DNA of 64,000 bases from assembly GCA_965199825.1 (NCBI GenBank), contig OZ241329.1:1152001-1216000 (forward strand), given 5' to 3'. The stretch is from Bdellovibrionales bacterium. Its GTDB lineage: Bacteria; Bdellovibrionota; Bdellovibrionia; Bdellovibrionales; UBA1609. The translations under genes were made by a program, and so were the position numbers. The stretch's first letter is position 1. Every line of letters starts with the position of its first letter. Of the stretch, positions 18,042-63,631 are shown piece after piece. Below the pieces are notes generated by a model. That model saw only the letters and a list, made by a program, of their open reading frames with translations. It ran no database searches and had not been told where the DNA came from.

Positions 18042-18848
18042 TCAATGTCGATGATGGGCACGATGATGACCCGAACACAAAATCGTCAGATTCTCGATTT
18101 CATCTGTACCACCCTGTGATTTTGGATGTTGATGATGGATATCAAGATGTCTTTGCTGCGTGCATCTTTCACCATTTTCATCGATGTGGGTACATTGGCC
18201 GTCATACTTTTGATGGAGCTTACGTTTGATGGTGATTTTCGAAGTGCTTTTGGGCGGGCACGATTTTTTGAGCGGATCCAATTTCTCAAGTAATAGCTGA
18301 GTGGCGTGATCGTGGACATCTTGAATAGAGGCGGCTCGTTTTAGTTTTTGACTTAAAAGATCTTGGGCTCTTTGAATCTCTTTAAATTTTTCTTCGCTCA
18401 CCGCATAGGTGATTTGGATCAGAATTGTTTCGCCCACCTGTTTGTATCGTGCCCGCTCGGGAATTGCTTTTTCGGGATGGGCTTTGGCGATTTGTTTTTC
18501 TAAATTTCTTTTTGTGCCCTTGGCATGGTCGCACCATTCGAGAACATTGTCTGAAGTGATGATACTTGCGATGCGGTTAATTTTAGAAACAGAAAGTTCG
18601 CCCGTTTCCATTTGGGTTTTAAGTTCAGGAACTTCAGTAAATTTCTTTGCGAGCTTATTAAAGATGCTTGCCAGTTCCTCTGACATTTTGAGCTGCTTGG
18701 TTGAATACTCAAAAAGCGAATGACAGCCAAATTTATAATAGCTTCTGTTGCGCCACACTTGCTCTAAAGCATTCAACAATTCCATTTCGGTTTTGCGATG
18801 ATTCTTTGCTGCGATCACTGCGGTTTCGTGGATTTTTTGGTGACTCAT
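18042..18848 (-). CDS. HNH endonuclease-domain protein, copy 1 (helical N-terminal domain + C-terminal HNH)
   Basis: QCT...RCTQQRHLDIHHQHPKSQGGTDEIENLTILCSGHH HNH/Zn motif; FGCHSLFEY N-terminal motif; AGGAG RBS. Confidence 0.85.
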   Translation of the reverse strand: MSHQKIHETAVIAAKNHRKTEMELLNALEQVWRNRSYYKFGCHSLFEYSTKQLKMSEELASIFNKLAKKFTEVPELKTQMETGELSVSKINRIASIITSDNVLEWCDHAKGTKRNLEKQIAKAHPEKAIPERARYKQVGETILIQITYAVSEEKFKEIQRAQDLLSQKLKRAASIQDVHDHATQLLLEKLDPLKKSCPPKSTSKITIKRKLHQKYDGQCTHIDENGERCTQQRHLDIHHQHPKSQGGTDEIENLTILCSGHHRAHHRH

Positions 18849-18873
18849 TAAATATCTCCTATTTACTGAGTTA

Positions 18874-18882
18874 AATATAACA
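18874..18882 (-). promoter_or_regulatory. Extended -10 promoter of HNH copy 1
   Basis: TGTTATATT on minus strand; equivalent TGATATACT precedes copy 2. Confidence 0.5.
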
Positions 18883-19060
18883 TGAGTTTTTTTAAGAGCA
18901 TTTTTGATAGGACTCGACTGTTTGTGGAGATCAAGTTTTTGCTGGAGAGTTTGGCTTAAGGTGCGTTTGTGAAGTGCGTGTGTTTCAAAAAGAATCGGAT
19001 GTTTTCAAAAACAAATCCTTGGGCATTTTAAGACACCTAAATTTGCGTCAATATTTTTTT

Positions 19061-19264
19061 TGGGCGGGCACGATAATTTGTTTACCTCATCCGCGGTAGG
19101 CACGAACACTTATCTACCGCTATGGGCGGGCACGACGAATTATGAATCCATCCTGGGCGGGCACGATACTTTCGCAGCCTCATTGGGCGGGCACGACAAT
19201 CCACAACCCCCACTCGAAGCGGGAACGACAATGCACAACCCCCACTCGAAGCGGGCACGACAAT
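19061..19264 (+). repeat. Interspaced repeat array: 7 x (TGG)GCGGGCACGA core, 30-32 bp period, ~17-21 nt variable intervening sequence
   Basis: CACGA/AACGA cores at 19069, 19101, 19131, 19162, 19192, 19224, 19256. Confidence 0.85.
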
Positions 19265-19372
19265 CTAAAAATCCAACCCAATACTGCAACAACAGCCGGC
19301 TCTGGCGAAGGGGCCCAAATAGTCACTTTCAAAAATCATCTAGATCCTGATTGCTCTGATCGGGCATTCGAC

Positions 19373-20542
19373 TTGCTCATAAGCTTGTTGGTGATTTTAA
19401 TTTTACTTTTACTTCATTTAAAGGCTTTTGCGGGCTGCAACGGTTTGCCGTTGTGCCATTTTACGCTTGCGGTTGTTAATGACGATCAAAAGCCAACACT
19501 GATCACAAGTCAGTATCGCTTTCGTCCGCCCCAAAAAGGCTATCCTACTTTAGTTTATATTCCTGGCGGACCGGGTGAAAAGGCTTCCGATAAAAGTTTT
19601 GATGCGTTTTTTGATTCTCCTCCACAGTTTGGGGTTCTCCTCACCGATCCTCCCTTTATCGACATGCAAAGTAGCGATAAATTTAAAAAACTGATGACCT
19701 CACAGTTTGTGGCAGATGTTGTGTCAAAGGCGATTGAGGATGCAGGAGTTGAATCTAACTATATTTTGTTTGCTGATTCCTATGGAACAGTTCCGGCTAC
19801 GATCTTGGCTTCGCAAAAAAAACCGCGTGCGGTTGTTTTAGAGGGAGTGGTCGGCAAGGCTCGGACCTATGACGATTACCGCAATGGATTTCTCAACCAA
19901 GAAACCGAGATCCTGACGCGACTTAAAAATAAAGTTGTTAAAACTTATAATGCTCGGGTGAATTTATTTTTGGATCGCGGATCTTTAAGTGGCGATCAAG
20001 CGTGGGCGATACTACAAACGGTTTTGATCGATCGACATCATAATGGAAAGATTTGGCTTGAAACATTGGCCGAGCAAAGCACCCAACTTCGAATTCCTAA
20101 TTTTTTAAAAATGCTTAAAGATGTTTTTATGCTGAGTGTGGCAAAACATTTTGGCTCATCCCAGTTAAATCTGAATCAGGTTATCAACTGTCGAGAACTT
20201 TACTATGCCGAAGGTCACACCGATGAAACCTGTGACGGATCACCCAAAACTCTTTTTGATTCCGCTCAATATCAGATTCAATCGCCTGTCATTTATGTGG
20301 TTGGGGAAAATGATCCGATCACTCCTGATAACGGTTTTTATCATTATTCCAATCAAAAGACCGACCAAAAGTGGTTGGTACTTGTGAACGATGCGGGGCA
20401 TGCCCCATTGTCGGTGGAATTAAAAAACTGTGCGGTTGATTTTTGGAATAGTTTTATTGATCAAAATAATCTTGATGGTGCTGCACAAGTTTTAAAAAAC
20501 TGCGGCCGCACTTCTGGCAATAAAAAAATGGCGTCGAAGTAG
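19373..20542 (+). CDS. Secreted alpha/beta hydrolase (proline iminopeptidase-like)
   Basis: YIPGGPG, nucleophile elbow ADSYG, GENDP, AGH; signal peptide; start likely TTG 19373 or GTG 19391 (track ORF extends into the array). Confidence 0.75.
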   Translation: MLISLLVILILLLLHLKAFAGCNGLPLCHFTLAVVNDDQKPTLITSQYRFRPPQKGYPTLVYIPGGPGEKASDKSFDAFFDSPPQFGVLLTDPPFIDMQSSDKFKKLMTSQFVADVVSKAIEDAGVESNYILFADSYGTVPATILASQKKPRAVVLEGVVGKARTYDDYRNGFLNQETEILTRLKNKVVKTYNARVNLFLDRGSLSGDQAWAILQTVLIDRHHNGKIWLETLAEQSTQLRIPNFLKMLKDVFMLSVAKHFGSSQLNLNQVINCRELYYAEGHTDETCDGSPKTLFDSAQYQIQSPVIYVVGENDPITPDNGFYHYSNQKTDQKWLVLVNDAGHAPLSVELKNCAVDFWNSFIDQNNLDGAAQVLKNCGRTSGNKKMASK

Positions 20543-50448: not shown

Positions 50449-50929
50449 TGTCGTGCCCGCTCAAGGTGTCGTGCCCGCTCATGTTGTCGTGCCCGCTCAT
50501 GTTGTCGTGCCCGCTCATGTTGTCGTGCCCGCTCAAAGTGTCGTGCCCGCTCAAAGTGTCGTGCCCACTCAAAGTGTCGTGCCCGCTCAAGGTGTCGTGC
50601 CCACTCAAAGTGTCGTGCCCGCTCAAGGTGTCGTGCCCGCTCAAAGTGTCGTGCCCACTCAAAGTGTCGTGCCCGCTCAAAGTGTCGTGCCCGCTCAAAG
50701 TGTCGTGCCCGCTCAAAGTGTCGTGCCCACTCAAAGTGTCGTGCCCGCTCAAAGTGTCGTGCCCGCTCAAAGTGTCGTGCCCGCTCAAAGTGTCGTGCCC
50801 GCTCAAAGTGTCGTGCCCGCTCAAAGTGTCGTGCCCGCTCAAAGTGTCGTGCCCGCTCAAAGTGTCGTGCCCGCTCAAAGTGTCGTGCCCGCTCAAAGTG
50901 TCGTGCCCGCTCAAAGTGTCGTACCCGCT
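50449..50929 (-). repeat. 18-bp tandem repeat, 26 full units + 1 degenerate; unit GAGCGGGCACGACACTTT on minus strand
   Basis: TGTCGTGCCCGCTCAAAG every 18 bp from 50449 to 50917. Confidence 0.97.
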
Positions 50930-51216
50930 GACTCCAGATAAAATCCTGAACCAAAACTAAACACCTCCGGAGTTTGCAAAAATACTCAAGAATCACTTTC
51001 AGTAAGACGTGCGAAGTGCGTGTCACCACAAATTCTTTAAATTAATATTGACGCGTTTTTGCAGCTTCGGGAGCAGGACTTATTTGGTCACTATTGAATC
51101 AGGGGTCTTCAAAGCTCAATCTGCGGATATAACCTGGTCCAAATCAAAATAACCCACCGTAATTTTCAAAATAAAAATCACACGTGCTCGTTCAAAAAAT
51201 CAAAATAAATAACCCA

Positions 51217-51225
51217 TGATATACT
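51217..51225 (+). promoter_or_regulatory. Extended -10 promoter of HNH copy 2
   Basis: TGATATACT then AAACAGGAGA RBS, mirrored upstream of copy 1. Confidence 0.5.
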
Positions 51226-51248
51226 TCTTCTTTAAACAGGAGAAGTTT

Positions 51249-52067
51249 ATGGATCATTCTAAAATTCATTTCCAAGCAGTAACGGCTGCGGCCAACCACC
51301 GCAAAACAGAAATGGATTTACTTAACGCTTTAGAAATCGTATGGCGAAATAAAACGTATTATGAGTTTGGGTGCCAATCTTTGTTTGAATATTCAACCCA
51401 ACAACTTAAATTATCTGATGAGCTCGCGAGCATCTTTAATAAACTAGCAAAAAAATTTATTGAAGTGCCTGAACTTAAAACTCACATTGCATCAGGTGAA
51501 ATTTCAATTTCAAAGGGCAATCGAGTTTGCAGTGTGATCACCCCAGAAAATGCCGAAGAATGGCTGGCGAAAGCCAAAGGTACAAAACGAAATCTTGAAA
51601 AGGAAATCGCGAAAGCACAACCTGAAAAGGCAATCCCTGAGCGGGCACGATATCGTAAAGCAGGCGACACCGTTAGAATTCAAATTTCTTACTCTGTCAC
51701 CGAAGACGAATTTAAAGAGCTCGAAAGAGCAAAAGATTTAATGAGCCAAAAATTAGGTCGAACGGCCACAACCAACGATGTTTGTGTGCGAGCGGTAAAA
51801 ACACTCTTACAAAAAATAGATCCGCTCGAAAAGTCGTGCCTGGTTCAAACTGCGGGCACGATCAACTTAACCGTAAAACTAAAACGGAAAGTTCATCACA
51901 ATCACAATAGCCAGTGCACTTACCGAGATGAAAGTGGCAAGCGCTGCACTCAGCGGCGTCACCTTGATATCCATCACATCACCCCGACATCACTAGGTGG
52001 TACCAACGACGAAAACAATCTCACAATTTTTTGTTCGGGACATCATCGTGCCCACCACCGCCATTAG
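51249..52067 (+). CDS. HNH endonuclease-domain protein, copy 2 (paralog of 18042-18848)
   Basis: RCTQRRHLDIHHITPTSLGGTNDENNLTIFCSGHHRAHHRH; colinear with copy 1; AGGAG RBS before ATG 51249. Confidence 0.85.
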   Translation: MDHSKIHFQAVTAAANHRKTEMDLLNALEIVWRNKTYYEFGCQSLFEYSTQQLKLSDELASIFNKLAKKFIEVPELKTHIASGEISISKGNRVCSVITPENAEEWLAKAKGTKRNLEKEIAKAQPEKAIPERARYRKAGDTVRIQISYSVTEDEFKELERAKDLMSQKLGRTATTNDVCVRAVKTLLQKIDPLEKSCLVQTAGTINLTVKLKRKVHHNHNSQCTYRDESGKRCTQRRHLDIHHITPTSLGGTNDENNLTIFCSGHHRAHHRH

Positions 52068-63098: not shown

Positions 63099-63631
63099 AT
63101 GAAACAAGACTCTCTTTTTAAAACCAAAGTTCCGCATTCGGTGGTGAACTCTACCGAAAGCGAAGCGGCCGTGGCCCAAGACCCCTTGCCACAAATCAAT
63201 CGATGCATCTAGTTTTGCGTTCATCAAAAGCAAAGGGTAAATTGTCATTTCTGACATCAGAAAATAAAACGTTGATCGACTTTTACGTTAAGAAATTTGC
63301 AAATCAATTTAGGATTCGGATACTCGGATTAGCAAATGTTGGAAACCACATTCATTTGCATTTAAAACTTTCCAATCGATTTTTTTATAAATCGTTTATT
63401 CGTGCGCTAAATTCTGCCATCGTTACCGGAATTAGAAAATTAAATAGTTGGATTAAAATTGAGGGCAAGTTTTTTGATGAGCGTCCCTTTACCCGCATTT
63501 CATCGGGTCTAAGCGATTTTGAAAATATCTGTCGTTATGTTCAGATCAATATCCTCCAAGGCCAGGGCATTGCGCGCAGTGTGGCCGAAGCCTTTGTGAA
63601 ATCAGCGCGGAATTTCAGGCGGTCAGGATAA
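63099..63631 (+). pseudogene. HUH (Y1, IS200/RAYT-like) transposase with an apparent 1-nt frameshift near the 5' end
   Basis: GNHIHL HUH motif, RPFTR, YVQIN tyrosine; ATG 63099 is out of frame with the AFGGEL...RPL...MHLVLRS body. Confidence 0.6.

Follow-up and report, generated by a model that had tools for sequence, protein, structure and literature searches.

A short DNA word kept inside a multicopy HNH gene of a Bdellovibrionales bacterium, the likely docking site of the gene's own protein

Stand-alone multicopy genes that join a DUF222-related N-terminus to an HNH domain at the C-terminus are known from mycobacteria as DUF222-HNH or REP13E12 genes, and one study treats them as a repetitive element (PMC10589994). 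The gene family considered here is likewise multicopy, dispersed on the chromosome and equipped with a C-terminal HNH domain, and most likely belongs to a DUF222-related HNH element, although the protein encoded in the window (the whole 64-kb stretch of DNA analysed) has no DUF222 match itself. With an E limit of 1, Pfam DUF222 matches 6 of the 24 related N-domains (best E 3.1e-8); it is found in none of 27 full-length proteins at E 0.01, and an Atlas cluster with 12% DUF222 scores 0.94. No mechanism for this known gene family appears in the open-access literature searched, in which neither a cognate DNA site, intragenic motif or array for the DUF222-HNH family nor a description of an HNH gene paired with a site of its own was found.

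The ParB-parS, Noc-NBS and KorB-operator systems resemble this family in the predicted DNA-binding fold, and the palindromes found in relatives of the gene match parS and NBS in size and layout (parS, TGTTTCAC-GTGAAACA; NBS, TATTTCCC-GGGAAATA; PMC7383237). The palindromes bound by ParB, Noc and KorB measure 13-16 bp, and palindromes of this kind occur in the relatives. ParB-HNH fusions involve the CTPase fold (PMC12704722). The protein studied here, in contrast, leaves no space for a CTPase domain and includes an HNH domain; it is encoded in many copies, and within its own gene lies a site that reads as an asymmetric half-site. REP/RAYT and IS200/IS605 systems combine an HUH transposase with short repeats. 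As in those systems, a short word is clustered at an enzyme gene and scattered in intergenic arrays; however, the enzyme here is of the HNH type without a Y1 match, the word forms no hairpin, and the Y1 family of this genome has an upstream word of its own. This second multicopy family comprises 17 Y1 (IS200-like) transposase-related loci, one in the window (63122-63565, plus strand), one at G000:C1:247000-247539 and 15 more; Pfam Y1 matches the window copy, and the word ATGACATTGCCC stands upstream of many of the loci. Free-standing HNH homing and nicking endonucleases likewise join a small HNH domain to a separate DNA-binding part. Homing enzymes cut the empty allele, and the intact site is missing from the element, whereas here the sites lie within the element, and the three site patterns tested are missing from nine empty loci of diverged species. 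Phage relatives of the free-standing enzymes nick one strand (PMC3592412). From CRISPR, TIGR and OMEGA systems the locus differs in its irregular spacing, its local duplications, and its unstructured leader without an Rfam match.

In the window the word GGGCACGA has 37 occurrences where 1.49 would be expected (at most four in 100 shuffles): 3 in HNH gene 1, 5 in the array upstream of that gene, 26 in the tandem array of 18-nt units and 3 in gene 2. The motif has the form TCGTGCCC(R)C; it reads as TCGTGCCC on the coding strand in the array units, the linker and the HRAH sites alike, and is inverted at the ERAR site. The features are listed here by coordinates, strand and content.

18042..18848, minus: HNH gene copy 1, 268 aa, with predicted ParB/KorB-like helix-turn-helix (HTH, about 1-128), ribbon-helix-helix (about 141-192), linker and HNH domain (205-268)
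18447..18458, plus: intragenic site 1, at the ERAR codons; TCGTGCCC read from the non-coding strand, inverted relative to the array; 16 of 24 paralogs have it exactly
18248..18264, minus: intragenic site 2, linker KSCP codons; array orientation; this form in 12 paralogs, the inverse form 20 nt further in 10 (AGT codons)
18055..18064, minus: intragenic site 3, HRAH codons at the 3' end of the gene; exact in 23 of 24 paralogs
18856..18884, minus: likely extended -10 promoter TGnTAnnnT (18874-18882) and ribosome-binding site (18856-18860), with function proposed from sequence
18849..19051, minus: fixed-length leader with TTGAC at 19047-19051; divergent sequence, T-tracts then A-tracts
19058..19265, minus: array upstream of copy 1, with seven motif units (five exact, two degenerate), variable spacers and a 32-nt tandem duplication at the end
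51249..52067, plus: HNH gene copy 2, 272 aa, with TTGAC at 51048-51052
51643-51650, 51854-51861 (inverse linker form, AGT codons) and 52046-52053: motif sites of copy 2, with a one-mismatch remnant at 51834-51841
50449..50929, plus: array upstream of copy 2, in which an 18-nt unit with the motif is repeated in tandem 26.7 times

Re-reading of the sequence located the motif within gene 1 at all three sites reported by the first-pass annotation, with GAGCGGGCACGA on the gene strand at the ERAR codons (18447-18458), TGGGCACGAT in the HHRAHH codons (18055-18064), and identity over 17 nt between 18248-18264 and 19058-19074; the codons beside ERAR differ synonymously in copy 2, as it had said. The identity between linker and array is real but is not a general feature, being restricted to one recent clade: beyond the linker 8-mer the match to the array extends for 9 nt in three near-identical copies and for 1-3 nt in the other nine sense-linker copies, and the 17-nt identity is one event common to the three recent copies. 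Retention of the motif in copy 2 likewise holds for the ERAR codons but not for the KSCPP-type linker site, which is replaced by the one-mismatch remnant and an exact inverse site. The internal sites of gene 1 lie at 18056, 18256 and 18447, and such sites are 191-211 nt apart in all paralogs, near the 200-nt length of the leader. On the other side of array 1, the frame of a neighbouring alpha/beta hydrolase (19142-20542, plus strand) extends back into the array, and its true start is probably further downstream.

The two copies of the window alone are too few to show constraint, and the 28 loci found by tblastn in the 2.84-Mb genome were therefore used; the 24 of at least 260 aa were codon-aligned, and 4 truncated or split loci were omitted. 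Divergence among these paralogs is given by a median dS of 1.97 and dN/dS of 0.12 (218 computable pairs). When synonymous changes are counted on the protein tree, the slowest seven of 106 four- or six-fold degenerate columns are S196, R263, A264, R134, A133, G203 and R132, all of them motif codons, with 0-0.11 changes per column against a median of 0.36 (permutation p ~1e-5, which overstates independence because the paralogs are related). The suppression of synonymous substitution that the first-pass annotation had proposed is thus found at the motif codons, which are the lowest of the degenerate columns. Arginine columns within the motif have 0-0.11 changes per step, against at least 0.30 in the 12 other arginine columns, and conservation ends at the edge of the motif, with P130, Y135, G260 and H265 varying normally. 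The exact 8-mer is kept at the HRAH site in 23, at the linker in 22 and at the ERAR site in 16 of the 24 full-length copies, and two of the copies that have lost the ERAR site carry a new one, exact or nearly so, 19 nt downstream. At the linker the word changes orientation: 12 copies carry it forward, encoding S-C-P, and 10 carry it reversed, encoding A/E-G-T. As the linker word is kept in both orientations with different peptides, it is the DNA word and not the peptide that is maintained, and the codon comparison supports selection at the DNA level on the motif within the coding sequence.

The full-length protein is modelled with a pLDDT of 90.6 and consists of three parts. Folded alone, the N-terminal domain reaches a pLDDT of 93.7, and the DNA-binding domains of ParB, KorB and Spo0J occupy four of its top five structural rows, with middling scores (Z 6.0-6.5, below 8; 91-110 residues; rmsd 2.9-4.7). 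Foldseek gave no significant match for this domain (E >1), Pfam HTH_ParB is found in 7 of 24 related N-domains (best E 7.7e-5), and hhalign against a ParB-type profile gives 77.9% with E 1.8e-5. Residues 141-192 match ribbon-helix-helix proteins (Z ~5), and residues 205-268 match HNH domains, with IscB as the top structural row (Z 7.3 over 57 residues). HNH PF01844 is above the cut-off in the window protein (E 8.8e-6) and is matched by 27 of 27 members, in which H239, N253 and three cysteines are invariant. Only HNH-type families match repeatedly in Pfam, and no transposase family (DDE, HUH, serine or tyrosine) does; nor is there a Pfam match for the CTPase (ParBc) domain, the 268-aa model being filled by the HTH, ribbon-helix-helix and HNH parts. 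From these models, the ParB/KorB-like HTH is predicted to read the site, the ribbon-helix-helix part to dimerise the protein, and the HNH domain to nick near the site. A scan of genome contigs with the single protein returned seven loci, all of them short matches to the 149-179 helix (a stretch with a weak DnaJ match), and was not used. A specificity code between recognition helix and site was sought in about 40 proteins with hand-assigned sites and rejected, as related proteins have arms in common and nothing beyond. The chromosome also carries two parS-like sites (G000:C1:964355 and 964918) beside its parB gene (962701-963000), unrelated to the motif.

Upstream of the gene, the distance from the last motif to the start codon is 140-348 nt in the 27 loci with a 5' part, and TTGAC is separated from the extended -10 by 168-171 nt in 24 of 28 loci. 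The extended -10 and the ribosome-binding site are conserved in paralogs and relatives, and TTGAC lies at a comparable distance in 21 of 73 relatives. No folding signal was found in the leader of 25 copies (z-score means -0.13 and +0.10 on the two strands), nor did the region give any Rfam match near the gathering score. In both leaders of the window (18849-19051 and 51048-51248) T-tracts occupy the first half and are followed by A-tracts in the other, in a loosely mirror-symmetric layout. The leader may be a wrapped or bent segment of DNA; in a search for helical phasing of its tracts, 10.5 nt was not the top period. Homology among four recent copies starts about 6 nt before the proximal motif and stops at the stop codon, about 14 nt past the HRAH 8-mer.

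The genome contains 522 copies of the 8-mer, of which 234 lie within 1.5 kb of the 28 loci, and 61 are isolated, against a background expectation of 46-60. Away from HNH genes there are 18 motif clusters, and nine of these are intergenic arrays of 11-39 units without an HNH gene:

G000:C1:246215-246855
G000:C1:484400-484722
G000:C1:751483-751756
G000:C1:808687-809770
G000:C1:953715-953902
G000:C1:1355531-1355998
G000:C1:1538411-1538773
G000:C1:1575773-1576478
G000:C1:1618395-1618845

These nine lie between host genes, several of them 90-220 nt before one, and one has a unit common to arrays at HNH loci. Spacing of the motif in arrays is never below 16 nt and peaks at 16-20 nt, with 49 distinct units of 16-20 nt. 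Array spacers recur locally and do not match foreign DNA: of 63, 12 recur at the same locus, 6 at another HNH locus and 4 elsewhere as 18-21-nt matches. A single depth-2 contig from the sequencing runs has a differing array unit, on coverage too thin for use. At the loci starting at 535332 and 576436 (G000:C1, minus strand) the downstream arrays are duplicated 3' ends of the gene from the HRAH site. Two further copies are broken at the linker, one (G000:C1:799110, minus) breaking off just after the linker site and the other (1029866, plus) starting at the linker, which suggests recombination at that site. Among 401 genomes of the phylum, a three-unit array of the motif is found in two, the source genome and, as one short repeat, G178.

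The gene is present in 20 of 40 related genomes. Homologs with other motifs do not keep the codons in question: TCGTGCCC is found in the gene of none of 63 non-redundant relatives, several of which carry a motif of their own. A linker inverted repeat occurs in 29 of the 63 (such repeats number 3.1 per kb in the linker codons and 0.9 per kb elsewhere in the gene), and under a strict test its arms are also found in the flanks of the same locus in only 4 of those 29. An identical inverted-repeat site in at least two of the three zones (upstream, linker, downstream) is found at 8 of 59 loci, against a mean of 0.08 over 12 zone swaps; the other 51 have no two-zone match under this strict filter. 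The sites of relatives are full palindromes of 14-22 bp whose words vary by lineage (e.g., CCTGTC-GCGC-GACAGG, TGTGC-CCGG-GCACA and TCGTC-GATC-GACGA), and many relatives have one upstream palindrome and no array. Paralogs of genome G036 have three different site centres, and in G015 the palindrome GTTCTTAAGAAC has 12 copies, 6 of them as pairs flanking three genes on both sides, with none in the sister species G307. In the genus g46, 5 of 11 loci examined have the site twice, once about 50 nt ahead of TTGAC and once in the linker, and two orthologs have the centre altered in both copies together (AAG in G333, AAA in G428). The full palindrome TCGTGC-N4-GCACGA does not occur in the chromosome studied here, and from the comparison the present motif reads as a half-site, the left arm and centre of a palindrome of the TCGTGC-CCGG-GCACGA type; an asymmetric half-site would explain why either half can serve in the linker and why the arrays are head-to-tail. 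Long simple-sequence runs lie directly upstream of the left site in several relatives (L174:600-1200, L212, L215, L175 and L024), and simple repeats are found upstream of 6 of 61 genes of relatives against 2 of 4145 control windows, a hint only, as the control is from this genome alone. No relative of the protein was found in viral contigs, phages or plasmids.

Presence of the gene varies within g46, where 23 of 31 genomes are positive, with 0-14 gene matches per genome. Of two syntenic spots, the first, which is intergenic, holds the gene in 11 of the genomes fetched (in three of them as a split or truncated copy) and lacks it in 6; the second holds it in 2 and lacks it in 3. Three site patterns are found at none of nine empty and nine of 13 filled g46 loci, where the filled count is partly circular since the patterns were derived from filled loci, and where the empty loci come from diverged species about 70-90% alike. 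Most proteins at the first spot (those with site A) form one group, but one lies outside it, and at the second spot the two proteins are not related to each other. This points to loss as well as to independent arrival; by this grouping, an old insertion that was later lost would explain part of the pattern. Neither a target duplication nor a precise insertion junction was found in this genome or at the g46 syntenic loci, no empty allele was found in contigs from the sequencing runs (both unique flanks being covered in two of four), and in the search for an empty site of G015 in its sister genome only one flank was found. A model with target-site duplication was rejected for this genome by reasoning, as conserved His codons, missing at the upstream sites, follow the site on the right.

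That the motif (TCGTGCCCGC) is a binding site of the gene's own protein seems quite probable overall. The reading we favour, with a little more confidence than doubt, is that it is the likely docking site of that protein in a likely selfish mobile element and has a role in the element's spread. The data directly support DNA-level constraint, clustering at gene copies, lineage-specific sites at matching positions and syntenic presence and absence. The element would be laid out as a site array, the fixed 200-nt leader, the gene with its internal sites, and a further site. Protein bound at the upstream and internal sites would pair them and nick, and this pairing and nicking would be needed for copying to new loci, so that copies with intact sites multiply. 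Repair of a nick beside the left site would duplicate 16-20 nt including the site and enlarge the array, the 16-20-nt arrays then being scars of duplication and repair. Repression of the gene may be a further effect of the bound complex. A site that lies mid-gene is not an element end; internal transposition enhancers, as in phage Mu, are a precedent for intragenic sites. In its fullest form the proposal is a transposase-free element whose ParB-HTH/ribbon-helix-helix/HNH protein pairs its own sites at the left end, in the gene and at the right end and nicks in order to copy itself, in a lineage that moved from a palindrome to an asymmetric half-site and so writes tandem arrays across the chromosome, with protein and site co-evolving; this we advance tentatively, as possible but more doubtful than its core.

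The claim of an own binding site is common to a narrower account, in which the sites are operators for self-repression only, upstream and intragenic sites being looped over the promoter to silence a toxic nuclease while the gene spreads by another route. Operators both upstream of and within a gene are known in lac and gal, and here the upstream and linker sites bracket the promoter in this genome and in relatives, the fold resembles the repressor KorB and ribbon-helix-helix repressors, and the leader has a fixed length with positioned A/T tracts. Both accounts may hold; self-repression as the whole explanation is rather unlikely, since it leaves unexplained the homology of recent copies that starts at the site, the sites after the stop codon, the orphan arrays and the 16-20-nt tandem expansions. 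A process without selection, in which nicking at the site sets off gene conversion over short tracts, exchanged among copies and arrays, and so homogenises these bases, would account for the g46 centre base changed in both copies of a locus together, the 17-nt identity in one clade and the array units common to distant loci. It is nonetheless improbable, as conversion tracts are usually longer than the conserved stretch, isolated sites in the genome are about as frequent as the background predicts, and a mutated site that escapes cutting should persist, so that conversion would be expected to erode sites.

Pairing of array RNA with the mRNA was among the mechanisms listed by the first-pass annotation, which had spoken of a DNA/RNA motif. 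The nucleotide motif in the coding sequence stands, and recognition by the gene's own protein, as end recognition or autoregulation, fits; RNA pairing does not. That array-derived small RNAs pair with the mRNA or guide the HNH protein in a CRISPR-, TIGR- or IscB-like manner is very improbable in spite of the repeat-spacer look of array 1, IscB as the top structural row of the HNH domain and the fixed 200-nt leader: that leader is unstructured and without a near-threshold Rfam match, the spacers are local duplications of irregular length, the word has only 8-10 nt and occurs in both orientations within one gene, many relatives have an upstream palindrome but no array, and extended complementarity to the own array is confined to one clade, the context being no better for the own array than for other arrays (p 0.15 at the ERAR site, 0.59 at the end site and 0.17 at the antisense-linker site). 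Self-targeting in the sense of destruction of the own gene, also on that list, would be expected to favour loss of the site, not its retention. Just as improbable is a host protein or process that reads the motif (uptake, a Chi-like function, methylation or a regulator). The nine long arrays between host genes without an HNH gene speak for it; there is, however, no genome-wide excess outside clusters, sites differ among paralogs of one genome (G036) and between sister species (G015 with 12, G307 with none), the host parS is a different word, and the motif is near only one of 17 Y1-transposase-like loci.

DUF222-type HNH genes are widespread repeats without an assigned mechanism, and a named site makes binding, cutting and mobility directly testable. 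The present genome is an unusually clean case, with 24 paralogs, synonymous sites at saturation and a word whose reversal of orientation alters the peptide. If nicking by the protein takes place at its site, small sequence-specific nickases could be drawn from the family, each with its target written in its own gene, and this would account for a type of tandem-repeat array in these predatory bacteria; if protein and site co-evolve, the family would represent a natural library of compact site-specific nickases.
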